IMG/VR virus record: IMGVR_UViG_3300005758_000132
Location: 1-64,000 of that record
DNA: 64,000 bases
Reading direction: 5' to 3' (one strand)
Origin: a virus
Shown: one piece after another, positions 20,330 to 35,068 of the stretch
How positions within the stretch are numbered: position 1 is the stretch's first letter
Layout: each line of letters begins with the position of its first letter
The notes under the pieces: generated by a model
The model's database searches: none
The model's input: the letters and a program-made list of their open reading frames with translations, nothing else
Told to the model about the DNA's origin: nothing
Program-made: the position numbers and the translations under genes

Positions 20330-21990
20330 TTAGTACCCATCAGGTTATTCATGAAGTTCTGAATTGACGCAGCAGAGCCGGCTAGAGACCTCAGGCCTTC
20401 CTGCGCCTTGCGCGCGTTTACGGTCAAATCCTCAAATACTTTTACATCGCCTACACCACGTTGAATAGTCGTGGACTCAGACCGCGCCTGTATCACGCTA
20501 GCCTTAAATTCGTCAGTGCCCATGGTGGCGCGCATCGCGTCACTAATCATCGTTGTAGGGTCTACACCTTCACCATATCCCATCAGAGCGGCTTCAACCG
20601 CTGTTCTACCCGCGGCTACGCTAGTTGTACCGCCGGCGGCCATCGCAGCGGCGCCCTCGACACCGAAAAGACTAGCGAGATACTTAGCCGTACCCTCTGC
20701 ACCAAACTCTGCGCCCTCTGGCGCCTCTAGAGCAGCTGTGAGAAAGCTGAAACCCTTTTTCCCAGTCCTCTGCGCGGTTTGATACGCGCGCACAAGATTC
20801 ATCGTGTCAGCCATCGATGTGATGTCGCCGGCGATAGCGCCGCGCGTGCCACCGCGCATTGACTCTAAATTAGCCATTGCCTGCAAATTAGACATGCGCT
20901 GCTCGCGACCTTTAGCTACGTCCACCGTGAAAATTCGAGAGACGTAATCCCCGACATCCATCATGTCGAGCTTGAAGCCCTTACGAGCAGACTCCGCCAT
21001 CGAGTCTACAACTGCACTGACGATTGCATCAGCAGATACTTTAACGCCTTGTAATAGTCCTAAACCTCCCATAGATTCTAAATCCCATGAATACGCGCCT
21101 GTGTTGCCGCCATAAGCTCCTATTGACGACGCTCTACCCTGAAGCTGCGGACCAACACCCATAAGAGCTAGACGCGCCGCGCGTCTAGCGTTTGGTCTTT
21201 CAAGCAATGGAGTAGCCGCCGCGAATTGTGCCTCCATTCCTACGTATTCACGAGTATCAAATCCATACTCTTCAGCCGCCGAGTAATTTCTGAACAAGTA
21301 TCCACGGTCAACCGCTGTCCCAAAGTTGGTCATCGCAGCTTGTCTATACACAGGTAGTGCGGCTTGCACCTGCCCCATATAGACTTCAGCGCCTTGCGCG
21401 ATATCGTCGGCCACCATCTTTACCATGTCGCCTAGCACAGGACCGAGAATCGGACCGATGACGGGAATCATGCTCACGAGACCTGTGACAGCGGTGCCAG
21501 CCAAGTTCCCAGCCGCAGAGATAGCTCCTGTGCCACCCTTAGCGATGGAGTTTAGACTTTGCGCGGAAGTACGTAGCGCGTCTGAGATACGACGCTGAGT
21601 TTGCTCTCGATCGCGCTCACGTTGTGATTGACCTCCGCCGCCTCCCGCTCCACCGTCTCCGTCTCCTCCTCCTCCTCCTCCTCCTCCTCCTCCTCCTCCT
21701 CCTCCTCCTGCTGCTCCTGCTCCTGCTCCTGCTCCAGCGCCAGGAAGCGACTTCATAACGTCGCGCATGATATCGCCAAATCGGTCAGTCAGCCTGTTTA
21801 TGGACGCGTCTGAAATGTTGAGTTCAGAGACTCCCACACCCGGCGCGCTACCTGCACCCCCAACACCGCCCGTGATAGTAAGGTCGATGCGCGCGCTAGC
21901 TGCTAGGTCTTCCAGCTTTTTGATGACGCGATCAATAGCCTGCTCAGCTTGCGATGAATCAAGGTCAATCCTAAGCTCACGATTCGCCAT
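20326..21990 (-). CDS. Tape measure protein
   Basis: Ala/Gly-rich helical protein between chaperones and hub; IPVIGPILG motif. Confidence 0.7.
   Translation of the reverse strand: MANRELRIDLDSSQAEQAIDRVIKKLEDLAASARIDLTITGGVGGAGSAPGVGVSELNISDASINRLTDRFGDIMRDVMKSLPGAGAGAGAGAAGGGGGGGGGGGGGGGDGDGGAGGGGGQSQRERDREQTQRRISDALRTSAQSLNSIAKGGTGAISAAGNLAGTAVTGLVSMIPVIGPILGPVLGDMVKMVADDIAQGAEVYMGQVQAALPVYRQAAMTNFGTAVDRGYLFRNYSAAEEYGFDTREYVGMEAQFAAATPLLERPNARRAARLALMGVGPQLQGRASSIGAYGGNTGAYSWDLESMGGLGLLQGVKVSADAIVSAVVDSMAESARKGFKLDMMDVGDYVSRIFTVDVAKGREQRMSNLQAMANLESMRGGTRGAIAGDITSMADTMNLVRAYQTAQRTGKKGFSFLTAALEAPEGAEFGAEGTAKYLASLFGVEGAAAMAAGGTTSVAAGRTAVEAALMGYGEGVDPTTMISDAMRATMGTDEFKASVIQARSESTTIQRGVGDVKVFEDLTVNARKAQEGLRSLAGSAASIQNFMNNLMGTK
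21664..21735. repeat. (CCT)n and (TCCTGC)n microsatellites encoding poly-Gly and Gly-Ala
   Basis: Directly visible in the sequence. Confidence 0.9.
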
Positions 21991-22267
21991 GATTCGCCTC
22001 TCTGATTTTAGCCCAAAGCTCGCGTTCTTTTCTGGCAGCGTAAGAGTTGCCAGTTATTTTCGGACCCTTCTTTATATCAGGTTCACTGCCGCGTGTCTTC
22101 GCTCTTATAGCCTCGTACTGCTTTGTCGGCATAGCCGCCAGCACCATAAGGCTCAAGATTTCCGGTGCGACGTCTGGCGTGCCGTCAGCGAGCAGCGGAA
22201 ACTGAGGCATTGGAAGAAGACCCTCGCGTCGTAAGGACCACACGAGGCGTTTCCGCGCTTTCTCCAC
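21977..22267 (-). CDS. Tail assembly chaperone, second (T-like) frame
   Basis: Overlaps the upstream chaperone in the +1 frame, directly before the tape measure gene; weak RBS. Confidence 0.55.
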   Translation of the reverse strand: MEKARKRLVWSLRREGLLPMPQFPLLADGTPDVAPEILSLMVLAAMPTKQYEAIRAKTRGSEPDIKKGPKITGNSYAARKERELWAKIREANHGES

Positions 22268-22691
22268 TAGTTCCCAACCGTTCTGGAAATATCTCGGCGC
22301 GTAAGCGCATCACCTCCTGCGCCAGCGCCAGCGCGATGTACGGATCAGCCTCAGCCGCTGCGACAAGTTCTTTTCCGCCCGGCTGCGACATCAACTGCGG
22401 AGCCATTTTCATCACAGGCCAGAGATGGTCTCGCACCTCCGGCGGCACAGACGAGAACGGAAGCCCTGGGAAAGTCTCCGCCCATGCTCTCGACGCAACC
22501 ATCAACTCGCCCGGCGTCGGAACGCGCAAGATGCCTTCCCACGCGCGCTGCGTACCGCTTGGGTCCTTCCAAACGAGTCGCACGGCAGAGTGCCCTGGCT
22601 CTAGGTCAAAGACGTCTTCGTCGGGCGCCGCAGCTTTCTTGTCTGCCTTGGCTAGCGCTGAGGCTACAGCAGACACAGGTTCAACTTTCAT
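22185..22691 (-). CDS. Tail assembly chaperone (G-like)
   Basis: AGGAG RBS; position two genes upstream of the tape measure gene. Confidence 0.6.
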   Translation of the reverse strand: MKVEPVSAVASALAKADKKAAAPDEDVFDLEPGHSAVRLVWKDPSGTQRAWEGILRVPTPGELMVASRAWAETFPGLPFSSVPPEVRDHLWPVMKMAPQLMSQPGGKELVAAAEADPYIALALAQEVMRLRAEIFPERLGTSGESAETPRVVLTTRGSSSNASVSAAR

Positions 22692-22807
22692 TCGGATCTC
22701 CTAGCTCGATTCGCAGGCGCACGACCGTGCCTGCCTGTCAACACAGATACACTGTCCGATAGTCGGGCAGCAACACGTTGAACGGCCTGGGAAATAAAAA
22801 TAACGCG

Positions 22808-22905
22808 AACGTGTATTTTTCCTGTTGACGAGAAAAACGTTTGTCCTTATACATAGCTCATCAGGGGCGAGCAACTAACCAAGCCCCAAGGAGAGCTAGG
22901 ATGAA
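22808..22905 (+). repeat. 98-bp promoter-leader-RBS cassette, copy 1
   Basis: Near-identical to 24373..24470. Confidence 0.9.
22825..22853 (+). promoter_or_regulatory. Sigma70-like early promoter P1
   Basis: TTGACG-N17-TATACA with T-rich upstream tract; three copies in the island. Confidence 0.75.
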
Positions 22906-23173
22906 GCCAGAATTTTCCGTTGCAGAGCTGACCGCGATTGAGATTGCCACCACTAGGACGGGCTCCCCCGTCCTAGACCAGCTTGAGCATCAACTGCTTA
23001 ACCTAATCGCAGGTCGCGAGCATGGCCATAAAGGTCACCGCGGTTGGTGGAAGCCCGAAGACCAAGGATTCACCCGCTCGTCGCGTCGCGCGGTCGACGC
23101 GTGGCGCAAGCACGCGCAAAAGCTGCTTCTCGTAGAAGCTAGCTTCTACGATCGCTACTTTTTAGCGTTGTGA
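22901..23173 (+). CDS. Early hypothetical protein (paralog of 23314..23550)
   Basis: AAGGAGA RBS; shared AELxAIE...QLLxLIAGRExGxKGHRG...GFTRS. Confidence 0.75.
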   Translation: MKPEFSVAELTAIEIATTRTGSPVLDQLEHQLLNLIAGREHGHKGHRGWWKPEDQGFTRSSRRAVDAWRKHAQKLLLVEASFYDRYFLAL

Positions 23174-23185
23174 TCGTTTTTTCTG

Positions 23186-23214
23186 TTGACGCGAAAAACG
23201 TTTGCGCTTATACA
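23186..23214 (+). promoter_or_regulatory. Sigma70-like early promoter P2
   Basis: TTGACG-N17-TATACA with the same aaaaacgtttg spacer. Confidence 0.75.
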
Positions 23215-23229
23215 TAGCTTGAGAGGGGC

Positions 23230-23298
23230 GTGACACCTATCCATGACGAGAAAGCGCTGATCGAAGCGCTCAAGAGCTGCCGAGCGCGCTTCGCGTAA
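23230..23298 (+). CDS. Candidate 22-aa micropeptide MTPIHDEKALIEALKSCRARFA
   Basis: First ORF after P2, purine-rich tract just before the GTG; resembles the C-terminus of 37791..38696. Confidence 0.35.
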   Translation: MTPIHDEKALIEALKSCRARFA

Positions 23299-23313
23299 TT
23301 GAGGAGAGTCAAG

Positions 23314-23550
23314 ATGAACGATCGTCGTCGTATTTATTCGGACGCTGAACTTATCGCGATTGAGCTGTGCGAGCTGCGACTAGACAATCTCGGCAGCTAC
23401 GCACACCTCAGAGACCAGCTTCTCTGCCTGATCGCAGGCCGTGAGCGCGGCGACAAGGGTCACCGCGGGTACAAGAAACCGGACGGCTTTACGCGAAGCG
23501 CTGACCTAGCGGTAGTTGCTTGGGTAGAGCACGTGCGTCGTAACTTTTAG
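23314..23550 (+). CDS. Early hypothetical protein (paralog of 22901..23173)
   Basis: GAGGAG RBS; clear paralogy. Confidence 0.75.
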   Translation: MNDRRRIYSDAELIAIELCELRLDNLGSYAHLRDQLLCLIAGRERGDKGHRGYKKPDGFTRSADLAVVAWVEHVRRNF

Positions 23551-23588
23551 TCATAACTTTTACTCGGTAACAAAACAGGAGCGCTAGA

Positions 23589-23927
23589 ATGACCAAGCTG
23601 ATTAACCTCACCCCCCACGCCATCAGCGTCCAAGCCGCTGACGGCACCACAACCACATTCGAGTCCGCAGGCGTTGCTCGCGTGACCTCTACTGACCTCC
23701 CTGCGGGAGAGCTTAACGGCTTCCCGGTCGTCACTACCCAGTATGGGGAAGTGACCGGGCTCGGTCCCATGACTGACGGCGTCGTGTACGTTGTCAGCGC
23801 GATGGTCCTCGACCGCGTTGTCGGGCGCACTGACGTAGTGGCGCCCGACAGCGGACCAACGGCGGTCCGAAACGAAAAAGGGCAGATCGTCGCCGTGCGC
23901 CAGTTCCGCGCGGTAGCGGCAAAGTAA
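23589..23927 (+). CDS. Conserved phage protein with NLTPH N-terminus
   Basis: LINLTPH...VVYVVSAMV...RTDVVAPD...VRNEKGQI; AGGAG RBS. Confidence 0.75.
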   Translation: MTKLINLTPHAISVQAADGTTTTFESAGVARVTSTDLPAGELNGFPVVTTQYGEVTGLGPMTDGVVYVVSAMVLDRVVGRTDVVAPDSGPTAVRNEKGQIVAVRQFRAVAAK

Positions 23928-23957
23928 GCTGCCATTAGCTCTGAGGTTCTGCCTAGT

Positions 23958-24368
23958 ATGAAGCTCGTAATCATCATGCGGGGCTTGCCGGGCGCTGGAA
24001 AGAGCACGCTCGTCAAAGCGTATCAGCGACTGACTACTTCGCACGAGGTGTGCTCTGCGGACGACTACTTCATGGGTCCGGACGGCTACCAATTCGACGC
24101 GCGCAAACTATCAGTCGCGCACACGTGGTGCAGCGCAAAGTTTTGGCGCGCGTTGCAGCGCGGCACTGAGCTGGTGATCGTGGACAACACCAACACGCAG
24201 CACTGGGAGTTCGAACCGTATAAGCTAGACGCGACTGACGCCGGGTACGAAGTGCGCGTGGTCGACATCTACGACGGAGGCCTGAGCGACCGAGAGCTAG
24301 CGGAGCGCAACCAACACGGCGTAGCTGAAGCACAGATCGCGACTATGCGGGCTCGCTGGCAAAAATAA
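23958..24368 (+). CDS. P-loop kinase, N4BP2/polynucleotide-kinase-like (AAA_33 type)
   Basis: MRGLPGAGKST Walker A, CSADDYF, VIVDNTN, RNQHGV. Confidence 0.85.
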   Translation: MKLVIIMRGLPGAGKSTLVKAYQRLTTSHEVCSADDYFMGPDGYQFDARKLSVAHTWCSAKFWRALQRGTELVIVDNTNTQHWEFEPYKLDATDAGYEVRVVDIYDGGLSDRELAERNQHGVAEAQIATMRARWQK

Positions 24369-24372
24369 AGCA

Positions 24373-24470
24373 AACGTGTATTTTTTCTGTTGACGAGAAA
24401 AACGTTTGTCCTTATACATAGCTCATCAGGGGCGAGCAACTAACCCAGCCCCAAGGAGAGCTAGGATGAA
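24373..24470 (+). repeat. 98-bp promoter-leader-RBS cassette, copy 2
   Basis: Near-identical to 22808..22905. Confidence 0.9.
24390..24418 (+). promoter_or_regulatory. Sigma70-like early promoter P3
   Basis: TTGACG-N17-TATACA, identical to P1. Confidence 0.75.
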
Positions 24471-24906
24471 CGCGCTTACCAACGAAAACCTCAAGCCCTT
24501 TGTCACCGCCGGCAACGCCACCTTTACGGTGGTCAGCAAGGCGACCGGCACGCGTTTCACCTTCAAGGTCACGGCGCCCCCTGTTGAGAAGGGCTCATCT
24601 ATCAAGGATTACGAGGCGAGCGTTCGCTTCGTAAAGGTTCTCAGCGGACCTAACAACGACGCTGATTATCTGTACATCGGAGCGCTTCGCCCGGATGGCT
24701 TCGTCCCCAAGACGGGACTGAATCCAGAGGCGCCTAGCGTCAAAGGGTTCACCTGGTTTGCCCGCCAGATGCTCACGGGCAACGCGAAGGCGCTCGCGCA
24801 GGTAGACGTCTACCACGCCAACAAGTGCGGGCGCTGCGGGCGCACGCTCACCACGCCTGAGAGCGTGACCCTTGGCCTTGGCCCGGAATGCGCGGGCAAG
24901 GTCTAA
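24466..24906 (+). CDS. DUF6011-type zinc-finger protein
   Basis: AGNATFTVVS...TRFTFKV and C-terminal CGRCGRTLTTPESVTLGLGPEC. Confidence 0.8.
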   Translation: MNALTNENLKPFVTAGNATFTVVSKATGTRFTFKVTAPPVEKGSSIKDYEASVRFVKVLSGPNNDADYLYIGALRPDGFVPKTGLNPEAPSVKGFTWFARQMLTGNAKALAQVDVYHANKCGRCGRTLTTPESVTLGLGPECAGKV

Positions 24907-24942
24907 TTACAAGCAACAGCATCGGAGCGGGGAGTAACGAAT

Positions 24943-25437
24943 ATGGGTTGGGACGACGATACGATTTACACGGGCAGCGGAGGTCCTACATCCGCTAAGG
25001 TAGGCGATCTCAAGTTCGAAAACTGGACGGGAGAAGAAATCTACCTCCGTGTTCGAACGTCCGCGCCTGGCGCCATCACACCGGCGCACAGCACGCTCTA
25101 CATCGACTACACCAAGAGGACTAAGCTCGACCCAGAGTTTTTCGCGGTGGGCAAGATGCACGACTTCGGGTCTAGCTGCGTGGACGACCTGGACACGTCT
25201 ATCAGCGGCGATAGTTGGGACGCTCCGCGTCGAGGCGCAGCTGTTAAAGTGCTAGGGTGGTGGAAGACGCATAGCCCTATCGTAAACCCGATTCCAGCCC
25301 CCAAGGAGAACGTGGCGTACATCGTCAATCCTGACGTTGCGCCATACTACTTCCATCGCGATGACGTGTACATCCCAGGGGCACGAGATCCACGCGCGCC
25401 TAAAAGCGTGCTCTACCTCGTCAAGGTCAAGAGCTAA
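24943..25437 (+). CDS. Hypothetical protein, divergent relative of the NLTPH family
   Basis: FENWTGEEI...PAPKENVAYIVN...RDDVYIPG parallels 23589..23927. Confidence 0.6.
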   Translation: MGWDDDTIYTGSGGPTSAKVGDLKFENWTGEEIYLRVRTSAPGAITPAHSTLYIDYTKRTKLDPEFFAVGKMHDFGSSCVDDLDTSISGDSWDAPRRGAAVKVLGWWKTHSPIVNPIPAPKENVAYIVNPDVAPYYFHRDDVYIPGARDPRAPKSVLYLVKVKS

Positions 25438-25449
25438 GGAGAGAGGATT

Positions 25450-25758
25450 ATGACTAATGAAGAGCTTACTACGCACGTCAACGACTGGACAGGTACGCAG
25501 CTAAATTGGAATGAAGAAGACGTGGTGTGGGCTGCTAGCCACGACGGCGGCGAGTTGATCGCCTACTTCGAGAAGTTGCTTCGAAAGATGAAGCGAGAGC
25601 GCGCGGAGTGCATCCGTGATCGTGAAAGAGACGATTGGGTGTCCGTGACGCCCGCCACTCCCACATGCTCTCAATGTGGCGGCCACGGTGGAGCCACCGG
25701 GCTCGGTGGCATCGATGGATACGACGGTCCCTGCCATGCAGGACCCTACAAAGACTGA
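25450..25758 (+). CDS. Early protein with WTG-NWxExDVVW domain and a C-terminal Cys motif
   Basis: Strong RBS; the domain recurs in head-region genes. Confidence 0.7.
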   Translation: MTNEELTTHVNDWTGTQLNWNEEDVVWAASHDGGELIAYFEKLLRKMKRERAECIRDRERDDWVSVTPATPTCSQCGGHGGATGLGGIDGYDGPCHAGPYKD

Positions 25759-25852
25759 CACGCCGAAACCTCCGCATGGGGGTATGCGGTTCGCTACCGC
25801 ACTGATGATGGCTTCGCCCGAGTCGCTCTTGGGCATACGCAAGGGTTGCTAT

Positions 25853-26350
25853 ATGGCGCCAGTTCTTTCTTTTCACGTGCAGGTCAGCACCATCGTAGGC
25901 GCGCTCAGTCCTGCTGACGCTGCTAACACCTTCAAGGAATGGGTCAGCGACCTCAAGGCGTGGCCCATCGAAGTCGAGGCAAGCAACGGCGACCGCTGGG
26001 ACGTCGACTCGACGACCGGCGAAGTCGCGCCGCGCACTGGCCTGAGAAAGGCCGTCATTGAGGCTTGGGACTGGGACGAGATGCTCAGAACTTCGTTTCC
26101 GGGGTGGTTCCACGAGTTTGCTGACGAGGCGCTGCAAAACTCAGATGTCAGCTACGGCGATAACTCGGCCACGATTTTCTCAGGTCCAGTCGCTGTTACC
26201 GTCCTCGACTCAGCGTACTACAGCCTCATGCTAGCTAGCGTTCCTGGTATTGGTAGCGAGCAATACGCAGAGGCCAAGAAGGGTATCGAGCTGGCCGTCG
26301 CGGCCTATGATCTAAACAACCGCAGCACCCGTGTAGTGGTGTGGTCTTGA
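25853..26350 (+). CDS. Hypothetical protein (start uncertain)
   Basis: Open frame from 25676; ATG at 25853 preferred because it avoids the overlap and follows AAGGG. Confidence 0.55.
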   Translation: MAPVLSFHVQVSTIVGALSPADAANTFKEWVSDLKAWPIEVEASNGDRWDVDSTTGEVAPRTGLRKAVIEAWDWDEMLRTSFPGWFHEFADEALQNSDVSYGDNSATIFSGPVAVTVLDSAYYSLMLASVPGIGSEQYAEAKKGIELAVAAYDLNNRSTRVVVWS

Positions 26351-26400
26351 CGCGCTTGGTAGACGCCGTGACCGCGCGTAGCAGTACTTGGGGAGGGTAT

Positions 26401-27489
26401 ATGACGAGACTAGTAAACTACGCAGGCCATCTTGAGTATGTTTACGCGTACGACGACGAAGGTGCGCGTGCTGCCTATGAAAAACAGGCTATGCGCGAAG
26501 CCGCCAGACGGGATAACGACATCGCGGCGGCCTCGATTCTTGGGCACACTGAGCTTGGAAAAGCACTTCCTGTTGATACAGAGATTCCTACCCCTACAGG
26601 TTGGAAGCTACTAAAGGACCTTCATCCAGGTGACTTTGTCTTCGCTATGGATGGTAGCCCTACCAGGATTATATCTGAAACGCCTATAACTAAGCAGAAA
26701 GTATACAGGATCTTGTTTTCTGACTTCACTTATCAGGTAGCCAGCGGTGACCATCAGTGGCTAGTCTCGACCGGCGATAGAAGTCTTCATACGCTAACAA
26801 CAGTTCAGATACTTGAGTCAGGTCTTACTTGCAGAGTCCCTTTGTGTAAGCCTATCGCGCATAGCCTGAAAGATAACGTTAGGTGGCCTAATCTTTTAGA
26901 GCTGAAAAGGTTTAACTTTTACTCACGCATGTTTTCTTTTTGCTCTTCGAGAGACACTGAAGATGCTGCGGAGCTGGCTAGGTCTCAAGGTTACTTTGTA
27001 CTGGTCAGCGGTAATTGTTTGGAAGTAAGAAACGACTTGTTTAAGACGATTATGGCAATAGTTCCAGAGTCTCACGCAGTCGACATGAAGTGCATCGGCG
27101 TGGAGCACGAGACGCACACATACATTGCAGGTAGGTCTTACACAGTAACGCATAACTGTGTAACATCACAGACGATTTTCATTCTACGTGACGGTAGTCT
27201 GGTAAACACCATCGGCCACACCCCGACGGTTCGGATGCTTTTCAGCCACGAAGGAAAGACCGTCACCGTGACGAGCGCGCGCAAGCGTCCGGGCGGTGAC
27301 CCCAACTTCAAGGTGCTCGACGACCTCGGTAAGGTGCCGCGTCCTTTCCAGCGCGCCGCCATCGAGAAAGTCATGACGAGGTCGTTTGGAATCGTCAAGG
27401 CGCCGCTTGGTTCCGGCAAGACACTCTGCGCTGTGGGCTGCATGGCCTCACAGCCGGTTATCGATATGGACACGGGTGAGGAAGAATAA
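26401..27489 (+). CDS. Chimeric intein-containing ORF ending in a truncated SF2 helicase N-terminus (possible pseudogene)
   Basis: GGGAGGG RBS; intein; then PRPFQ (Q motif) and APLGSGKT (Walker A) followed closely by a stop. Confidence 0.6.
   Translation: MTRLVNYAGHLEYVYAYDDEGARAAYEKQAMREAARRDNDIAAASILGHTELGKALPVDTEIPTPTGWKLLKDLHPGDFVFAMDGSPTRIISETPITKQKVYRILFSDFTYQVASGDHQWLVSTGDRSLHTLTTVQILESGLTCRVPLCKPIAHSLKDNVRWPNLLELKRFNFYSRMFSFCSSRDTEDAAELARSQGYFVLVSGNCLEVRNDLFKTIMAIVPESHAVDMKCIGVEHETHTYIAGRSYTVTHNCVTSQTIFILRDGSLVNTIGHTPTVRMLFSHEGKTVTVTSARKRPGGDPNFKVLDDLGKVPRPFQRAAIEKVMTRSFGIVKAPLGSGKTLCAVGCMASQPVIDMDTGEEE
26563..27156 (+). mobile_element. Ala1 (class 3-type) mini-intein, 198 aa
   Basis: GK|ALPVDTEIPTPTGW...DHQW...MKCIGV...YTVTHN|C; W-C-T triplet present; AT-richer codons than flanks. 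Confidence 0.85.
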
Positions 27490-27809
27490 TGAGTGGCGGA
27501 CATTTTAACTTCATACAATCTAAGCTCGCGTTCTTGGACGAGCAGATTATTCGCGTCACCAGCACGGTAGACGGTGACTGGAACATTGACGTCCATCACA
27601 ATACTAAAGAGGCTGCGAAACGGCGCATTGCCATCGCTGCGCTATTGGTGAAGGCAGCCGCCGCAGCGATTCAGCGCGTTGATTATCTAGCGTGCGACGA
27701 CGATGGAGTGGAGTCGTTCGTGGCGCGTTGGGATGAGGAAGTTGAGCCGCTGCTGGCTGACATCAAGCGTCATCTGAGTACGAGAGGTGCCCGTGCGCGT
27801 AAGGTTTGA
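27489..27809 (+). CDS. Conserved phage hypothetical protein (MSGGHF start)
   Basis: MSGGHFNFIQ...RVDYLACDDDGVESF; TAATG coupling. Confidence 0.7.
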   Translation: MSGGHFNFIQSKLAFLDEQIIRVTSTVDGDWNIDVHHNTKEAAKRRIAIAALLVKAAAAAIQRVDYLACDDDGVESFVARWDEEVEPLLADIKRHLSTRGARARKV

Positions 27810-28188
27810 TCAGCTCTCGATCGATAGGCTCGCGACGCTTACGACGCGCGAGCCTGTGGCCTTTTTCTACGTTGGTGAAGACCTAGACTTCGGTGAACAG
27901 TTGCTGTCCGCTGTGATGGATGACGACGTTGACGGGCTGCGCAACCTGGTCGCCTGTATGCTCTCGCAGGACACGTGGCTAGACGAGCTAAGAAACGCGC
28001 TACAAGGTGGCATCTTGTCGCGGTGGGCCGGTGACCCTATCGATCCTTCTACGGTCACCCTAGCGCTAAAAAATGTGCCTTCTGACACGCGTCTGCTAGA
28101 CCTCAAGCAAGCGCTGACGGTGAACGGAGTCTTGCCGTCGCGGGTCGTGATTGACCTTGCGCTAACACCAGATAAAGACGCAGAGTAG
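27787..28188 (+). CDS. Hypothetical protein
   Basis: Open frame filling the gap before the tRNA; the start may be GTG at 27793. Confidence 0.55.
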   Translation: MPVRVRFDQLSIDRLATLTTREPVAFFYVGEDLDFGEQLLSAVMDDDVDGLRNLVACMLSQDTWLDELRNALQGGILSRWAGDPIDPSTVTLALKNVPSDTRLLDLKQALTVNGVLPSRVVIDLALTPDKDAE

Positions 28189-28197
28189 AAAACCTAA

Positions 28198-28281
28198 GCC
28201 GGGATGGCGGAACAGGTAGACGCAGTGGACTTAAAATCCACCATCCAATGGGATATGCGGGTTCAAGTCCCGCTCCCGGCA
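28198..28281 (+). tRNA. tRNA-Leu(UAA), no encoded CCA
   Basis: GCCGGGA/TCCCGGC acceptor stem, GTGGA-CTTAAAA-TCCAC anticodon arm, long variable arm, GGTTCAAGTCC T arm, discriminator A. Confidence 0.95.
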
Positions 28282-28352
28282 GCCGCTCCATAACGATTGC
28301 ATTTATACACGGCGCGTGCCACGTTTAGCCGTCAGCAGGGGGATATAACGAG

Positions 28353-29069
28353 ATGGCAAAGAACAAGCAGCTTAGTGTCTCTTCTAACGTGCTCAAGCAA
28401 TGGCCGACGGAGCTAATGGATATAACTAGCTTGCTACCGGCAGGTTATAATCCACGTCGTATAACGCAACACGCGCTAGTCGGCCTTCAAAACTCGCTTT
28501 CTCAGTTTGGGCTTGTTCAGCCTATCGTATGGAACCGTAACACCGGCAACGTAGTGGGCGGGCATCAGCGTCTAGAAGCTATGAAAGCCCTAGGCGAGAC
28601 AAAAGCGCAGGTCATCGTAGTCGAGCTTAGCGATACGCAAGAGCGTGCGTTAAATCTAACGCTCAACAATCCAGCTATTCAAGGGAGTTGGAACGACGAG
28701 AAGCTTGAAGAGTTGATAGCGTCTCTCCAAGCCGCCGACGACTTCGATGTAGAGTCTGCGCAAGACACGCGTCTCGACGAGCTGATCGCACAGTTCTCAA
28801 CGTCAGATATTTTACTTCAGCTTCCGGATAGCGACAGCGGAAGCGGTCTTGAACCGGACGAGGCTTCCTACGCGGCAGTTGTAACTGACGCGAAAAAACC
28901 TTCTTACGCGCGTATGGTATCGGTGTTCATGACTGATGTCGAAGAAGGCGTCTTCTACGAGAGAGTAAACCAACTCAAGGCAAGTTGGGGTTTCGACACT
29001 TTGTCCGAAGTCGTAGTCGAGGCTGTAAAACAATGCTCGTCAAGGACAAAAGAAGATGAAAATCTATGA
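28353..29069 (+). CDS. ParB/Srx-like N-terminal domain protein (modification-cluster associated)
   Basis: YNPR...FGLVQPIVWN...VVGGHQRL...LNN. Confidence 0.9.
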   Translation: MAKNKQLSVSSNVLKQWPTELMDITSLLPAGYNPRRITQHALVGLQNSLSQFGLVQPIVWNRNTGNVVGGHQRLEAMKALGETKAQVIVVELSDTQERALNLTLNNPAIQGSWNDEKLEELIASLQAADDFDVESAQDTRLDELIAQFSTSDILLQLPDSDSGSGLEPDEASYAAVVTDAKKPSYARMVSVFMTDVEEGVFYERVNQLKASWGFDTLSEVVVEAVKQCSSRTKEDENL

Positions 29070-29985
29070 GATAAAAAAGTCGCCAGCCGAAGACTCGATA
29101 GCTGGCTCGTGGATACAGGAGTCTGATTACGACGTCCTAGTGGACGAGGACGCTGAAATACGCGACGCAGATACTGGCGCAGTAGTCGCGCGACTTCGCA
29201 AAGCAGCCCTACCCGCGGAGCTATGCAAAACGGTTTGGCGTGATTTGAGAGAAAAACTAACTACTGATCCAGGTAATCGACTAACGGCAGTAGGCAATAC
29301 GACGTATTTAGCAAATAGCACTAACAAGCGCGCGCTACCGGGAGCGTCTACACCGAGCGGTCGAGTAGGAGACGCTAAAGGGCAGACACTGGGTTACATG
29401 GATCGATCGGTTCGACAACCGTTTTGTCGTCAGACAGCTTGGACGGCCGAAGAAGTAGAAGCTTGGGAAAGATTCGTGCCGTTCGCGCAAGCTGTAGATC
29501 GCGTTTACGCTAATACTATGCCCGAGCACTACGCCTTCCAGCGCGGAGTCGCGGATAAGTCGTCACAAGATTTTGTAATTAGCGACACCGCTTTCACAAC
29601 CGTCACAGCCAATAAAAACTTTCAGTGCGCAGTTCATAAAGACGCAGGAGATTTGCCCGGCGGCTTTGGCGTGATGACGCAATGGCGAGCCGGCGATTTT
29701 AAGGGAGGCGACATCGTGTTCCCAGAATACCGCGCCGCGATACGCTACGGCGCGACAGATGTTTTATTCGCCAACGTGCATCTATGGCACGGCGTATCCA
29801 AAATGATAGGTATAAAGAAAAAGTGGGAAAGGCTCGTCTGTGTTTTTTATTACAGAGACGGTATACAATTCTGCGGTACGGCAGCGGAAGAGCTTAAACG
29901 CGCTGCGCAGCGTAAAACAGGCGACCCGCTAAAGCGTGTACACATCGATCGCAATGATCCCCACGCGTCGGAGACGAAACTTTGA
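29056..29985 (+). CDS. TET/JBP-family Fe(II)/2-oxoglutarate dioxygenase
   Basis: GYMDR..PFCRQTAW, FTTVTANKNF..AVHKDAGD (HxD), WHG, RLVCVFYYR. Confidence 0.9.
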   Translation: MKIYEIKKSPAEDSIAGSWIQESDYDVLVDEDAEIRDADTGAVVARLRKAALPAELCKTVWRDLREKLTTDPGNRLTAVGNTTYLANSTNKRALPGASTPSGRVGDAKGQTLGYMDRSVRQPFCRQTAWTAEEVEAWERFVPFAQAVDRVYANTMPEHYAFQRGVADKSSQDFVISDTAFTTVTANKNFQCAVHKDAGDLPGGFGVMTQWRAGDFKGGDIVFPEYRAAIRYGATDVLFANVHLWHGVSKMIGIKKKWERLVCVFYYRDGIQFCGTAAEELKRAAQRKTGDPLKRVHIDRNDPHASETKL

Positions 29986-30638
29986 TAGGTCAAAGTGTTT
30001 TAGTTTTAGCCCCGCACGCGGACGACGAGGTTCTTGGCGCGGGCGGGTTATTAGCCCAATCGACAAGGAAAGGCGCTAAAGCTTTCGTCTGGGTAGCGTC
30101 AAGCTCTAATTACACCCGCGCAGACGGTAAAGAAGTTAGACGCGCCGACCGATTAGAAGAAGCAGAAAAAGCGGCACGCGTTCTAGGAGCTATACTGATC
30201 GGAGAAACCAAAGACGCAGAAGGTAATCTAGACGAGAAGGTTGGGCACCGCGCCTTAGTAAAAGTAATCGAAGATGTTATTCGAGCCGCTCAACCTCAGG
30301 TCGTAGTTATACCAGGCCCGAGCCACCATCAAGACCATCAGGCAGTACGGAAGGCGGCGCTGTCCGCTATGAGAGGCGGACAGCGAGGGCCGTCAGTCAT
30401 ACTGTCTTTCGAGTATCCGCCGAGCCCTTTCGTAGACCTGCCAGCCGGTAGGGTATTTGTAGAGCTAGAGCAGCTAGATATGAACGCCAAACTCGCTGCA
30501 TGGAGCTGTTATAAGAGCCAGCTCGGCTCGCACATGACAAGTCTTCAGATAGAGAACATGGCGCGAATGCGCGGATTAGAGGCTAAAGGCGACGGAATCG
30601 CGGAGCTATTCGCGCTAGAAAGGATGGTGCTTAAATGA
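29982..30638 (+). CDS. PIG-L/LmbE-family N-deacetylase
   Basis: APHADDEVLGAGG, RLEE, HQDH, KLAAWSCYKSQ. Confidence 0.9.
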   Translation: MIGQSVLVLAPHADDEVLGAGGLLAQSTRKGAKAFVWVASSSNYTRADGKEVRRADRLEEAEKAARVLGAILIGETKDAEGNLDEKVGHRALVKVIEDVIRAAQPQVVVIPGPSHHQDHQAVRKAALSAMRGGQRGPSVILSFEYPPSPFVDLPAGRVFVELEQLDMNAKLAAWSCYKSQLGSHMTSLQIENMARMRGLEAKGDGIAELFALERMVLK

Positions 30639-31399
30639 AGTGGCCGCATATCGCTATACCGTCATACAAGAGAAGTAGTACGCTTCTCAAAAAAACTCTT
30701 TTACTGCTTTCTCAAAATCGTGTTCCTCAAGAAATTGTGACTGTGTTTGTCGCGAACGAGCATGAGAAAAGCGCGTACGAAGAAGCGCTCGCCAGCGGTG
30801 GTTGGGGCAACGCGAAGATCGCTATAGGGGAGGTAGGAATGGGCGCCATTCGCCGCTTCATTGCTCGTTACTACCCAGAGGGTGATCATGTTCTGAATAT
30901 AGACGATGACGTGACTAGACTATTGGTTCGCGTCGACGATAAAAAAGTCTCTGACACGCCTCTGTCGGACGTTGTTTCGAGCGGATTTAGACTTCTCGCC
31001 AAGAGCGGACTTCGTTTATGGGGCGTCTACCCGAACAAGAATCCGTATTTCATGAAGCCTACAGTGTCAACGGATCTTAAATATATAAACGGAACATTGT
31101 GGGGAAATATCTCGAACCGCGACGATCGGCTGTTGGTGACGCTCGACGACAAGGAAGACTTCGAACGGTCTATACGATACTACGCGATCGACGGCGGAGT
31201 TGTTAGGCTAAACTACATTGCTACAGAGACCAAGTACTATACTGAACCTGGCGGTATGCAAGAGAGCCGAACCGAGCGAGGAATCACAGAGTCTGCGCAT
31301 AAACTTGTACGAATGTTCCCGCAGTTTTGCTCTATAAATAACGCGCGTAAAGGTCACACAGAGGTAAAGCTAGCAGACCGACGAGGCGCGAGAGTATGA
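30635..31399 (+). CDS. TET-associated GT-A fold glycosyltransferase
   Basis: IAIPSYKR, IDDD, KEDFERSI, GGVVRLN, PGGMQ. Confidence 0.88.
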   Translation: MKWPHIAIPSYKRSSTLLKKTLLLLSQNRVPQEIVTVFVANEHEKSAYEEALASGGWGNAKIAIGEVGMGAIRRFIARYYPEGDHVLNIDDDVTRLLVRVDDKKVSDTPLSDVVSSGFRLLAKSGLRLWGVYPNKNPYFMKPTVSTDLKYINGTLWGNISNRDDRLLVTLDDKEDFERSIRYYAIDGGVVRLNYIATETKYYTEPGGMQESRTERGITESAHKLVRMFPQFCSINNARKGHTEVKLADRRGARV

Positions 31400-31404
31400 G
31401 TACA

Positions 31405-31867
31405 AAACAGAAAAGCCCGAGTCACCGTGGGGTTGGCGATTCGGGCTTTTCTGTTAGCTCAAGGAGTCGCGGAGCGCTCGACCTGCGTACAAATCCGTGG
31501 GACCGGATCGGCGATCGAGCCAGGAGGGGTGAAGCAGGGTGGTGCTTCGTGATCCCTCCGGCGCGGCTAACCCTTCATTCGAAGAAGCTACCTAACAAAA
31601 GCTGTGCAACGCGGGAAGCAATGCAAGGTTGAGGAAAAGCGAACTGAGAGACATTCCCAAGTCAAAAGTCCTCAACGGTCAGCTATTCACAAGCTGGAAC
31701 AAACGTAAACCTCAAGCACCCAGTAGCGTAAGCCAAGAGTGGAGCAGCGTACGAAAGCGACAACGTGTGAAGTTATTAGAGAGCAAAAACAAATGACGCC
31801 TGCACAGATTTCGCCGTGCAAGGGGCTAGGACCTTCAGAGCGACACCGAAGCGCCGTCCCGAAGGTG
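31405..31867 (-). ncRNA. Candidate structured non-coding RNA (~460 nt), family unknown
   Basis: Consecutive hairpins whose imperfect pairs are G-U on the minus strand; C-UUCG-G tetraloop; bounded by a promoter and a terminator. Confidence 0.6.
31410..31451. terminator. Bidirectional intrinsic terminator
   Basis: GAAAAGCCCGA...TCGGGCTTTTC inverted repeat with T tracts on both strands at the convergence point. Confidence 0.8.
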
Positions 31868-31873
31868 AGGAGC

Positions 31874-31902
31874 CTTCTAGAGCAGACTTCCAGACGACGC
31901 AA
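31874..31902 (-). promoter_or_regulatory. Putative promoter of the ncRNA
   Basis: TTGCGT-N17-TAGAAG with an AT-rich inverted repeat upstream (about 31905..31931). Confidence 0.45.
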
Positions 31903-31937
31903 CAAAAAAGTTTCGTCAGCTTAAACTTTTTCGCAAG

Positions 31938-32126
31938 TCATTGATCGTTGGATGTTTTTTCGCTCGTTTCAGGAGCGTTTGGCGACGCTGGTGGTGGTGT
32001 CGCGTGTAGTCTTCGAACATGACAAAAGCACATCGCGTAAACTGATCGAGACTTGGAGACCGGGATCACAACGTATCCCAGGCCTCCACATTGAGTGCAG
32101 TTGCAGCTACACGGTGCCGCGCTCAT
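31938..32126 (-). CDS. Small zinc-finger protein
   Basis: CTQCGGLGY...CFC; coupled to the tube gene stop. Confidence 0.5.
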   Translation of the reverse strand: MSAAPCSCNCTQCGGLGYVVIPVSKSRSVYAMCFCHVRRLHATPPPASPNAPETSEKTSNDQ

Positions 32127-32560
32127 CAGGTCCCGACTCTATCGCCGGGTTCAGTTCTAACGGCCTTCCAGCTCATGTTCTCAGTGTATAAACCGCCCTC
32201 GTCGCAACGGAAGTTACGCCGGGTTGGCTTGCAGCCGAAAACACGCTCGACGACCTGATTGGTATCGTCATCGAGAATCTCAAAGGTCACCGCGGGGAAA
32301 CGCACAACATCCAGCGTTCCGCCCACCGGCCAAATCTTTTGATCAGAGCCGGGAAGCTGAACGATGCGGATCTGAGACACGGAAAACGTGACGCTGCGAC
32401 GCATGATCTTTAGCTCTTTGACGTCAACGTCGCCTAAAGCGCGGACGTCTGAAACCTCGATCTCCTCACTGCCGTCTAAGTTAGTTCCCCAGCCGATCTC
32501 CACGCCGTTTGCGAGGATACGAACAGTGGAGCCGCCAATAGTACGTCTCTCGATTGCCAT
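32126..32560 (-). CDS. Tail tube protein
   Basis: 144 aa directly after the sheath gene; beta-rich tube pattern ending ENMSWKA. Confidence 0.85.
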   Translation of the reverse strand: MAIERRTIGGSTVRILANGVEIGWGTNLDGSEEIEVSDVRALGDVDVKELKIMRRSVTFSVSQIRIVQLPGSDQKIWPVGGTLDVVRFPAVTFEILDDDTNQVVERVFGCKPTRRNFRCDEGGLYTENMSWKAVRTEPGDRVGT

Positions 32561-32578
32561 AGAATTCGCGTGCTCCTG

Positions 32579-35068
32579 TTAGATGGTGATCACAGCCGCG
32601 CTGCTTACAGAGGCGGGCTCAAGGATCAAGAAGTTGTTGGGAACCACAACGTTGTACTCGTAACCGATGCGAGTAGCGTCGCCAGCGGCAGACGTCTCCG
32701 CGTACGCAGAGTTCTCGACGTAGCGCGCAATAATCTTGGACCTAGCCTGATAACGCAGGCGGTCAACAGCTAGTCCAAGCAGACCTCTAGGATCTACGTC
32801 CACGTTCGCTGTACCGATGACGCCGGTCATGTACGCGCGAAGATCGCGAATCGACCAGTACGCGGACTCGTTAGCAGAGACCTCAATCTGATTGATATCG
32901 TCGCTGGCGCGATATGTAGTGATCGAGCGCGTCACCTTGAAGCCAAGGTTATCACGGCTGTATGTGACAACGCCTGCGTCAAGCAGCGCGTCAGCGTCGA
33001 TAGTTCCATCCCATGCGGCGTTAGAGCGCACATCCAACACGCGCGGCCGCTTGAAGGTGAGCGGAGCGCCGATACGAACGCAGCACTGCATCGCGGCTAG
33101 CTGAAGAGCTTGCCACATGGGCGAGAGCCACCGACGGTTGCCGTTACGATCAAGAACACGGATTTCCTGCGCCGCGAAAGCGATGTGGCGCGAGTTGTAC
33201 GCGACGGTCAGCGTATTGAGTTGATCAATAGTCTGATCCGCTTCAGCGCCCGCCCAAACGTTGCACTCGCGAGCACCTGCGCCTGCCATGTAGGCAGCGT
33301 GCGTGTGCGCGTCCTGGATAATCGTAGCGTCCTGCGAAAGCACAGCGAGAACAGATGTCTCGGTAAGACGTAGCGCCTCGAAACACGCGTCACGCGACAG
33401 TGAGGTTGTGGTTCCGGTCGTGCCGCCTCCGAGTGGAGTGCTGCTAAGCGCGTCAACGCGAAGATTCGCAAGCTCCGTCCAGCGATAAGCGTGATCACCA
33501 ATGGCGCTATACGGCATCGCAGTGGCCAGCACAGCTGCTTTCACCACGTCACCTGTTGCGAGCGTACCCGAGCCGCGCAGCAATGTGCATCCCGTGAACG
33601 ACGTAGCAGTCTTGCCAGTGTAGCTAACGTAAGCCGTGCCGCCGGAAAGCTCGATCGAAATAACGCCTGCGCTGGGCGCCCCAGTGGTGGACACTACGTC
33701 AATCGTCGATTGCGGAAGGATATCGCCGTTTGAGCCAACCGCCACCGTTGTCGCAAAGACGCTTTCTACGAGCTTGAAAAGAGCAATGCCGCCAGCATCG
33801 CCGCCGAGCGAGGTGGTGCTCAAGTCATTAACACCCAACGCAATCACGGTGCCCGCGGCTACGCCTGTGTAGTTGCCAAGCGCCAGACCGGTTGTGCCTG
33901 TCACGGCAGCGTATTCAGTATCGAGATCCCAATTAGGTTGCGTCGTACCCTCGACAAGCTCGGCTGAAACGTAAATAGACTCAGCGTTTACGCGACGCGC
34001 GAACTCGAAATTATCGCAACGGAGATTGATGGCGCCAACGGTCAAGTCGCTGGATTCCAAGATATCTAGCGCACCGAGTTCAAGCGACGGTGCGCGCGCG
34101 TTGAGCACCGTTGCGCTGACGTCCACGAAAGCGTTGATGACGTCAGCAACGCGCTTGAGCGTTGTTACGCCGTTTGCGCGATTCATCCGGACCTTGGTCC
34201 AAGATGCCGCGATGGTACCCGCGTAAGCGCCTACAGTGATCGAATCGACGCGGCTATACGCGTACGCCGTGGGCTTCGCCTCCACCTGTCCAATCGTGAA
34301 CGCCACCGTCTCAGTATGAGCAACGCCAGTGTCTGCGCGAATGCCTGTGACAGACACGTTAACTGTACCCACCGTCGCAACCGACGGGGTTAGCAAAACC
34401 TTAGACGCACACGCACGTCCGTCAGTGGCGATGGCTTCAGTAGCTCCTCCGGCCAGATTCTTCAGGACCGTGATTTGAACTTCGCCAACAGTCTTCTCGA
34501 CGAGGTCATCATAGTACGGCACAGCAGAGAGGAAGACGCCGTCAAAGTAAGCTCCGTCATACGAGACGCTCACGACCGGACCGCTTCCAAGATTTAGCAG
34601 CTGCTCAGTAGCGCCACTCTTGGTGACGGTAAGATCAAGTCGAAGCGGAGTCGCAGACGGCGTGAGCGTGACAGACAGCTGATTTCCGGTTTGTCCAGAC
34701 ACGCGTGAAGACAAGGTTGCGACCTGCTTGCCGTTCTCGTCATCCAGGCCAAGAGACGCAGCCGTCGAAGCCAGCGTGGAAGCTAAGAGGACCGTCTGCG
34801 GAGGACGCGTAATTCGAGCGTCAGCCGCTGGGTTGAACGCGATGTCAGCGATGAGCTGCGCCTCGTCAAAATCGCCGTAGGTGCTGAGAAGACGGCGCGA
34901 GCTAGTAAACTCTGCGACCTTGCCGTTCTCAAGCCATTCAAACTCGCCTACGATCGCAAGGACCTTATCGAGATTGCTCACCCCGCCCTGCGGGGTCTGG
35001 CGCGGGTCAGCGTAAACTCCGGGAACGCCGGTGGTGAAGCCGTTGTTGGTGATGATCTTCGTAGCCAT
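32579..35068 (-). CDS. Tail sheath protein
   Basis: PGVY N-terminus; PLTFK, LLDAGV, VTRSITTY, PNNFLI C-terminal sheath motifs. Confidence 0.92.
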   Translation of the reverse strand: MATKIITNNGFTTGVPGVYADPRQTPQGGVSNLDKVLAIVGEFEWLENGKVAEFTSSRRLLSTYGDFDEAQLIADIAFNPAADARITRPPQTVLLASTLASTAASLGLDDENGKQVATLSSRVSGQTGNQLSVTLTPSATPLRLDLTVTKSGATEQLLNLGSGPVVSVSYDGAYFDGVFLSAVPYYDDLVEKTVGEVQITVLKNLAGGATEAIATDGRACASKVLLTPSVATVGTVNVSVTGIRADTGVAHTETVAFTIGQVEAKPTAYAYSRVDSITVGAYAGTIAASWTKVRMNRANGVTTLKRVADVINAFVDVSATVLNARAPSLELGALDILESSDLTVGAINLRCDNFEFARRVNAESIYVSAELVEGTTQPNWDLDTEYAAVTGTTGLALGNYTGVAAGTVIALGVNDLSTTSLGGDAGGIALFKLVESVFATTVAVGSNGDILPQSTIDVVSTTGAPSAGVISIELSGGTAYVSYTGKTATSFTGCTLLRGSGTLATGDVVKAAVLATAMPYSAIGDHAYRWTELANLRVDALSSTPLGGGTTGTTTSLSRDACFEALRLTETSVLAVLSQDATIIQDAHTHAAYMAGAGARECNVWAGAEADQTIDQLNTLTVAYNSRHIAFAAQEIRVLDRNGNRRWLSPMWQALQLAAMQCCVRIGAPLTFKRPRVLDVRSNAAWDGTIDADALLDAGVVTYSRDNLGFKVTRSITTYRASDDINQIEVSANESAYWSIRDLRAYMTGVIGTANVDVDPRGLLGLAVDRLRYQARSKIIARYVENSAYAETSAAGDATRIGYEYNVVVPNNFLILEPASVSSAAVITI

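Follow-up and report, generated by a model that had tools for sequence, protein, structure and literature searches.

A predicted structured, non-coding 3' trailer downstream of the sheath-tube unit in an uncultured contractile-tailed phage

We describe a candidate structured RNA element in the genome of an uncultured tailed phage that has a contractile tail and is without a close cultured relative. The DNA analyzed (the window) is a stretch of 64,000 nucleotides, the first 64 kb of the 109,013-bp IMG/VR virus record IMGVR_UViG_3300005758_000132, which is rated complete. The element lies on the minus strand at 31405-31867, and possibly extends further upstream, directly downstream of a putative tail tube gene (32126-32560, PHROG 985 match) that is read from the same strand and is the last clear gene of a sheath-tube unit. 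We propose, with a probability of roughly one half, that it is the structured non-coding 3' trailer of the late sheath-tube transcript, that it has a bidirectional terminator at its end and acts as a stable 3' end and insulator, and that it is possibly processed to an RNA of ~460 nt. The original prediction, made from the sequence alone, had described a structured RNA of this size with its own promoter and terminator. We consider the element a good but unproven candidate; the case for it is made up of thermodynamics, the absence of coding potential and a single relative that is weakly informative. What makes it useful is that it is a defined target, 460-720 nt long, whose domain boundaries are clear.

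According to the proposed model, there would be no protein gene between the tube stop codon at 32126 and the terminator at 31406-31455, and this minus-strand stretch would be transcribed as the 3' trailer of the sheath-tube unit, as the shared strand and the presence of only a weak hairpin in between suggest. The last 460 nt are predicted to fold into a UUCG-capped hairpin, a two-branch core, a two-hairpin 3' domain and the terminator, and this one terminator would end both the trailer and a convergent operon of DNA-modification genes. The role of the trailer would most likely be in cis, as the nuclease-resistant 3' end and insulator of a very highly expressed late message. Cleavage just 5' of the first hairpin, P1, could free a stable RNA of ~460 nt, to whose level a weak internal promoter may add.

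The evidence for the fold is thermodynamic prediction, with z-scores calculated against shuffled sequence. The minimum free energy (MFE) fold of the minus strand of 31405-31867 has an energy of -189.4 kcal/mol, and for these 463 nt z is -6.9 on the minus strand vs -2.3 on the plus strand. Since the terminator is equally stable on both strands, it was removed before the strands were compared a second time; the remaining 31459-31867 gave a z of -5.0 on the minus strand, with none of 100 shuffles as good, vs +0.1 on the plus strand. Folding beyond shuffles is thus minus-specific once composition is controlled, which bears out the expectation of the original prediction. The fold is well defined, the MFE and centroid structures being the same and the mean pair probability being 0.93. 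It holds 161 pairs, 23 of them G-U, and each of the seven sub-domains folds better on the minus strand than on the plus strand. The strand had also been thought to be fixed by imperfect pairs that are G-U on minus and A-C on plus. This argument holds only by way of the shuffle z-scores, which are minus-specific, because raw strand asymmetry is common in the genome: the gap of 29 kcal/mol between the minus and plus energies is reached by 18 of 235 genome windows.

The predicted structure begins with the 5' hairpin P1 (31831-31866), which has 9 + 6 bp and a C(UUCG)G tetraloop and is stable on its own (-21.4 kcal/mol, z -4.76, 0/200 shuffles as good; its plus-strand mirror, z -1.4). It is followed by a multi-branched core that is closed by a long-range pairing of ~25 bp and contains an inserted hairpin and two branches. 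The 5' strand of the long-range stem lies within 31773-31829 (RNA positions 39-45, 72-78 and 84-95) and pairs with 31567-31598 (RNA 270-301). The duplex between RNA 70-96 and RNA 266-302 has an energy of -17.0 kcal/mol on the minus strand (z -3.5, 0/500 shuffles) and of -8.0 kcal/mol (z -1.5) on the plus strand. The hairpin inserted in this stem (31799-31822, 9 bp) has -11.8 kcal/mol and a z of -2.7. It is followed by the U-rich CGUCAUUUGUUUUUG and so resembles a weak internal terminator, which could free an RNA of ~80 nt made up of the first two hairpins; a terminator scan lists this hairpin, but the count of such sites equals the shuffle expectation. Branch A (31686-31771, helices within RNA 97-182) is an interrupted, pyrimidine-rich arm and the weaker of the two, with a z on its own of -1.9 on the minus and +0.9 on the plus strand. 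Branch B (31600-31684) is made up of a GUUGAGGA/UCCUCAAC hairpin, which encloses an inner stem, and a UGCA..UGCA hairpin capped by a UUCCC loop; their z values are -2.8 and -3.4 on the minus strand vs -1.4 and -1.0 on the plus strand. The 3' domain (31468-31565) has two hairpins with C-rich loops (CCACCC and GUCCCA) and a weak closing helix of 4 bp, and taken alone exceeds shuffles only by a modest margin (z -2.3 minus, -0.8 plus). After it comes a mostly unpaired CUCCUUG (31460-31466) and then the terminator.

All of the helices listed in the original prediction were found where they had been placed, and all but one are in the MFE fold. Those retained include the UUGAGGA/UCCUCAA arm, UGCA..UGCA, GGAGGG/GAAGCA, GCUCGAUC/GAUCCG and the terminator; the CUUC-GAAU-GAAG stem is replaced by the long-range helix.

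The terminator is an inverted repeat at 31406-31455 with arms of 21 nt (31406-31426 and 31435-31455), and its hairpin has an energy of -33.0 kcal/mol (z -10.1) on the minus strand and -34.9 kcal/mol (z -8.6) on the plus strand. The G+C-rich stem is followed by a U-rich tail in either direction, UUUUCUGUUUUGU on the minus strand, which is the longer, and UUUUCUGUU on the plus strand; the terminator foreseen at this end of the element is therefore present, and it can work both ways. It begins 6 nt past the final stop codon (31397-31399) of a plus-strand operon with ParB-like, dioxygenase-like and glycosyltransferase genes, the DNA-modification operon mentioned above, and would end the minus-strand RNA too. 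Two transcription units, this operon and the minus-strand sheath-tube unit, thus converge at the element.

To assess coding potential we used a codon-usage log-ratio trained on 51 long genes, in which long genes score +0.18 (standard deviation 0.06); 332 open reading frames (ORFs) lying out of frame inside real genes, with a mean of -0.08, served as the spurious reference. Every ORF within 31396-32126 scored between -0.16 and 0.00, inside the spurious distribution, and the real neighbors, the tube and glycosyltransferase genes, scored +0.24 and +0.16. No Pfam or PHROG match was found for any ORF of this interval, in line with the earlier remark that the overlapping ORFs lack motifs, and the public protein collection has none of them among the proteins called on this genome. 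When 5.8 and 1.8 billion proteins were searched with the ORFs of the element, the single match was an ORF called in a near relative, which is discussed below. A protein search for a 72-residue minus-strand ORF gave no candidate in relatives, and a read-through translation of plus frame 2 had no match among 1.84 billion representatives.

Because shuffles flatter native sequence, we also calibrated the fold on the genome itself. Among 72 native windows of 409 nt (mean z -1.3, standard deviation 1.7) the element has the most extreme z, the next best being -4.1, and 10 other ORF-poor gaps gave z values from +0.8 to -4.0. By GC-corrected energy the region ranks second of 470 windows, at -2.6 standard deviations, and the window that ranks first holds a 26-bp inverted repeat. 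This repeat lies outside the window analyzed here (genome 69142-69199), is 96% complementary with a loop of 6 nt, is located inside minus-strand ORFs, gives its 463-nt window the highest stability in the genome on either strand and has no Rfam match. Also outside the window, an ORF-poor gap at genome 69764-70117 has a z of -4.0 on the plus strand vs -1.5 on the minus strand, with flanking ORFs on the minus strand, and is a second candidate structured RNA or antisense element.

The 5' end of the element is less clear than its 3' end. The original prediction had drawn the boundary at about 31867, which is probably wrong. The next 260 nt (31868-32125) are also structured, with several hairpins that include one of 13 bp within 32040-32092 and an A/U-rich one of 12 bp within 31893-31940, and folding of 31868-32128 gave a z of -3.1 on the minus strand vs -0.8 on the plus strand. 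The whole of 31405-32128 (724 nt) has -279.8 kcal/mol and a z of -7.3 on the minus strand, and all of the downstream helices are kept. The sole ORF of this upstream part, a doubtful one of 62 codons (31938-32126, minus strand), has spurious codon usage (-0.13), no family match and no entry in the public collection. As this part is both structured and non-coding, the element probably starts at the tube stop codon, not at 31867, and may be ~720 nt long (31405-32125). The ATG of the 62-codon ORF overlaps the tube stop codon by one base (TGATG), and its product would have a Cys-rich start, C-x-C-x-C-x-x-C, and later C-x-C-H; the ORF may encode a very small zinc-binding protein or else belong to the non-coding trailer. 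Downstream of the tube gene and before the 460-nt element, the only terminator-like feature is the A/U-rich 12-bp hairpin with its U run (-12.1 kcal/mol, z -1.7), so that most transcription from the tube gene would be expected to continue as far as the strong terminator.

The same hairpin could, however, partly terminate the tube transcript, as would suit an independent non-coding RNA gene. In this alternative, transcription would start near 31867 from a promoter of its own and give a stable RNA of ~460 nt that acts in trans; its target might be a host or phage protein, bound or titrated by the RNA, or else Shine-Dalgarno regions, with which its C-rich and CUCC loops would pair. We regard this as unlikely. 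The proposed promoter, TTGCGT-N17-TAGAAG (TTGCGT at 31902-31897, TAGAAG at 31879-31874, minus strand), is correctly spaced and stands 7 nt before the first base of P1, which would put +1 at the start of the strongest hairpin, the one with the UUCG loop, and the transcript of ~800 nt of phage ICP1 (PMC7567579) provides a precedent. Although the promoter geometry is right, the hexamers match the consensus at only 3/6 and 4/6 positions (~7/12) and the -10 box is without its final T. A sigma-70 scan of 31200-32700, with a threshold of at least 9 of 12 hexamer matches and a -10 box that keeps the conserved A2 and T6, reported no site, and the claim that the element has its own promoter is not supported. 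The sequence also differs from the phage's own early promoter family, which has TTGACG, a AAAAACGTTT spacer with a palindromic core, TATACA or TATAAC and N17 spacing, and has members at ~22.8, 24.4, 39.6, 75.1, 84.1 and 84.5 kb. No member of this family was found upstream of the element, where there is only a split A5GTTT..AAACT6 hairpin. Finally, structure and non-coding character extend upstream of the proposed +1.

Two members of the early family are near-identical copies on the plus strand (22808-22900 and 24373-24465) before two different genes; each has TTGACG, a AAAAACGTTTGT spacer and TATACA, then a common leader and a AGCCCCAAGGAGAGCTAGGATG start region. Their AGCCCCAAGGAG ribosome-binding-site context recurs at ~103.0 and 103.3 kb. 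No shared late-promoter motif was seen upstream of the late operons.

The composition of the RNA provides a lead as to what an RNA acting in trans might do. It is pyrimidine-rich, 78% of the unpaired bases being C or U, and CCC occurs in four hairpin loops, with 5 of 10 CCC triplets in hairpin loops, which make up 10% of the length. CUCC occurs seven times and CUCCU four times in 724 nt, counts that only the top 2-5% of genome windows reach. A ribosome-binding site, CAAGGAGCGC, that serves the sheath gene, the operon's own first gene, and two other genes is complementary to the CUCCUUG, which is mostly unpaired, and to GCGCUCC close by. These features would suit an independent RNA, but the C-rich loops partly follow from the G-poor composition (106 of 116 G residues are paired), and the anti-Shine-Dalgarno match, noticed post hoc and partly compositional, is to be taken as a lead only. 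Longer complementarity to phage transcripts did not exceed chance. The element has 11 complementary matches of at least 12 nt to the rest of the phage genome, one of them a 14-mer, vs ~9 expected, and this gives no support to an antisense regulator of phage genes, one of the functions suggested at the outset.

The position of the element raises another alternative. The sheath gene (32579-35068, minus strand, PHROG 279 match) encodes a protein that matches phage sheaths only, at ~25% identity, and few metagenomic proteins are similar to it. The array of tail genes is interrupted here by a plus-strand block at 22692-31399 (~8.6 kb) that lies between the tube gene and chaperone-like ORFs (21977-22691), and the remaining tail genes resume at 22691 going down, beyond this block. 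Its content (~22.8-31.4 kb) is early-type genes, a tRNA-Leu and the DNA-modification operon; the tRNA-Leu(UAA) (28198-28281, plus strand) is the sole tRNA and is 3.1 kb from the element, with four genes between. In a distant relative found by a metagenome scan (tube 39% identical), the sheath, tube, chaperone and tape measure genes are consecutive, with no gap. The element could, then, be a functionless spacer at a mosaic junction, left-over DNA with a chance fold and a genuine terminator that remained after insertion of the plus block.

We find such a spacer rather unlikely. Apart from the uninterrupted order in the distant relative and the place of the chaperone-like ORFs beyond the block, a spacer would agree with the gradient of divergence that a near relative shows across the region, with the failure of searches to find a homologue, with the choice of the region for its structure and with the individual weakness of its sub-segments. 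On the other hand, three frame searches found no homologue outside the lineage and hence no pseudogene remnant, and none of the 71 other native windows or the 10 other gaps has a z as extreme as that of the element. The fold is also well defined, with a long-range stem that is minus-specific. In addition, the insertions, deletions and substitutions of the near relative avoid breaking helices.

This relative emerged from protein clusters, which gave three related contigs, of 8425 nt (Logan), 2898 nt (Logan) and 1741 nt (JGI). The 8425-nt contig carries the glycosyltransferase, tube and sheath genes (P0016, P0018 and P0022), whose products are 98.4%, 94.4% and 91.4% identical in amino acid sequence to those of the window, and all four changes in the glycosyltransferase are in its first 54 residues. 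The stepwise fall in identity over 30635-35068 suggests that a recombination boundary lies inside the non-coding element or close to it. A gene caller reports in the contig a plus-strand ORF of 99 residues, P0023, that overlaps the element. Its first 73 residues correspond to frame 1 of the window and are 95% identical, with 4 replacements and no insertions or deletions. Beyond residue 73 it follows frame 2 for 7 residues and frame 0 for 19, and ends at what is a Trp codon in the window. These switches imply two 1-nt deletions in the relative, and the plus-strand frame is therefore not conserved.

Both deletions fall in branch B, one in the UUCCC hairpin loop (RNA 250-253) and the other in an internal loop and 3-bp inner helix (RNA 225-231). 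All seven of the single transitions that we infer for the relative fit the minus-strand fold, which with a chance P of 0.07 is at most suggestive. Three of them keep pairs that could form on the minus strand but not on the plus strand, G-C to G-U at 304/399, U-G to U-A at 77/288 (G288 to A, in the long-range stem) and U-G to C-G at 208/224. A fourth may be C-G to U-G at 172/107, and four or three of the transitions are unpaired, depending on whether the last change is at RNA 171 or 172. One transversion breaks a terminal A-U pair, and this one relative, read at the protein level, has no double compensatory changes. The proposed distinction between homologues that conserve a reading frame and those that conserve base pairs could thus be applied in part: the relative drops the plus frame past codon 73, and the nucleotide pairs are read by inference from protein.

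Several points weigh against the trailer proposal. A terminator hairpin is normally enough to protect a 3' end, and a role in cis therefore leaves 400 nt and more of structure unexplained. The region was picked for looking structured, and a top-1% score in 109 kb is about that of the chance-best window, so that the genome rank by itself is roughly what a best-of-genome pick would give. When the element is cut in thirds each piece is ordinary (z -1.1 to -1.4), and the signal thus depends on the predicted long-range pairs. Purines predominate on the plus strand (A 134, T 76), as they do on the coding strand of the plus-strand genes nearby. The comparison covers one relative and a translated ORF over 31396 to ~31697, and the divergence gradient lets conservation of the 3' half be neutral; because the adjacent glycosyltransferase has barely diverged, we did not count that conservation as selection.

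The purine bias would also be expected if the DNA-modification operon continued into the element with small plus-strand protein genes, at 31396-31632 (78 residues), 31629-31796 and 31739-31924. The ATG of the first overlaps the stop codon of the upstream gene by 4 nt (ATGA), as is seen within that operon, and this first ORF is the one called in the relative, where its 73 conserved residues are free of insertions and deletions. Nevertheless, such genes appear improbable. Their codon scores (-0.07, 0.00 and -0.04) are spurious-like, and the terminator, with its -33 to -35 kcal/mol, lies inside codons 4-20 of the first ORF. The relative uses three frames and stops inside the second ORF, which means that the second ORF is not conserved and that the tail of the first is unrelated. 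The first ORF has 4 replacements in 73 codons, two of them radical (R to G and S to L), vs 4 in 254 in the adjacent real gene. None of the three has a family match or is called in the public annotation of the window. The remaining alternative, a DNA element that functions in single-stranded form and is read on one strand, for instance a lagging-strand origin or a packaging signal, is very improbable: strand-specific imperfect hairpins do occur in the single-strand origins of plasmids and small phages, but with DNA parameters neither strand of 31459-31867 folds better than shuffles (z -0.43 minus, -0.03 plus), which disfavors the origin that had been among the initial suggestions.

Searches for homologues place the element outside the described RNA families. 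At the gathering threshold, the Rfam 15 covariance models, among them those of GOLLD, ROOL, RNase P, tmRNA, 6S, OLE, raiA and ribozymes, matched only the tRNA at 28198-28281 in the whole window. With E values up to 10, 31200-32200 gave sub-threshold Thr_leader matches on the terminator hairpin (28 and 24 bits, with a cut-off of 55) and two further matches with E near 10. ARAGORN found no tRNA or tmRNA in 31405-32128, and the earlier judgment that the element is not a tRNA, tmRNA or RNase P agrees with these results. A blastn search of 50,697 phage records gave no match. No homologue of the element was found by searching IMG/VR with the sheath and tube proteins or GTDB genomes with a tube alignment, and a stem-only pattern of the GGAGGG/GAAGCA hairpin found nothing in IMG/VR and GTDB genomes. 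Likewise, blastn and nhmmer searches with the 724 nt found nothing in 41 IMG/VR loci with a homologue of the glycosyltransferase next to the element, and the metagenome scan for relatives yielded only the distant one with a tube 39% identical. Judged by these sequence searches, no described RNA family includes the element. A repeat search led us to reject repeats or a CRISPR-like array at this place.

The element can be compared with four known systems. Its last 50 nt (31406-31455) fully fit the bidirectional intrinsic terminators found between convergent operons, having arms of 21 nt flanked by A/U runs; this class covers the terminator and not the 400-670 nt of structure upstream. In Staphylococcus aureus, the 3' untranslated region (UTR) of icaR and RNAIII are examples of long 3' UTRs or multi-hairpin RNAs whose C-rich loops mask ribosome-binding sites. 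Like these, the element would follow a coding region as a trailer of 0.4-0.7 kb whose loops are pyrimidine-rich and in which CUCCUUG is exposed. This is a resemblance only, as the motif enrichment is modest, post hoc and partly compositional.

GOLLD (RF01998) and ROOL (RF03087) are large, ornate RNAs of phages and prophages (PMC5737381; cryo-electron microscopy, PMC12286853). The element shares with them that it is phage-borne, several hundred nucleotides long and rich in helices with a long-range closure, and that it encodes no protein. Unlike them, it is known from one phage lineage only, and it matches neither covariance model even at E = 10; GOLLD and ROOL are typically beside tRNA genes, whereas the element is separated from the sole tRNA by the distance given above. 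In the Vibrio phage ICP1, the most abundant transcript is a non-coding RNA of ~800 nt from an ORF-less gap of 1 kb (PMC7567579). The ICP1 RNA was seen by RNA-seq and the element described here is predicted, and the two are likened by description, the blastn search of phage records having given no match of any kind. What they have in common is a large ORF-free gap in a phage of lytic type, beside late genes. On the boldest interpretation, which we think doubtful, the element would be the founding member of a new class, a large trans-acting phage RNA made in bulk from the 3' end of the sheath-tube unit that occupies a host factor, e.g. a defense or RNA-decay protein, and is part of a wider habit among tailed phages of having big folded RNAs after the tail tube gene. 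GOLLD, ROOL and the ICP1 transcript are abundant. If confirmed as a structured RNA, the element would add to these large phage RNAs an unrelated new example located behind the most strongly expressed late genes, a position that hints at how such RNAs are made.

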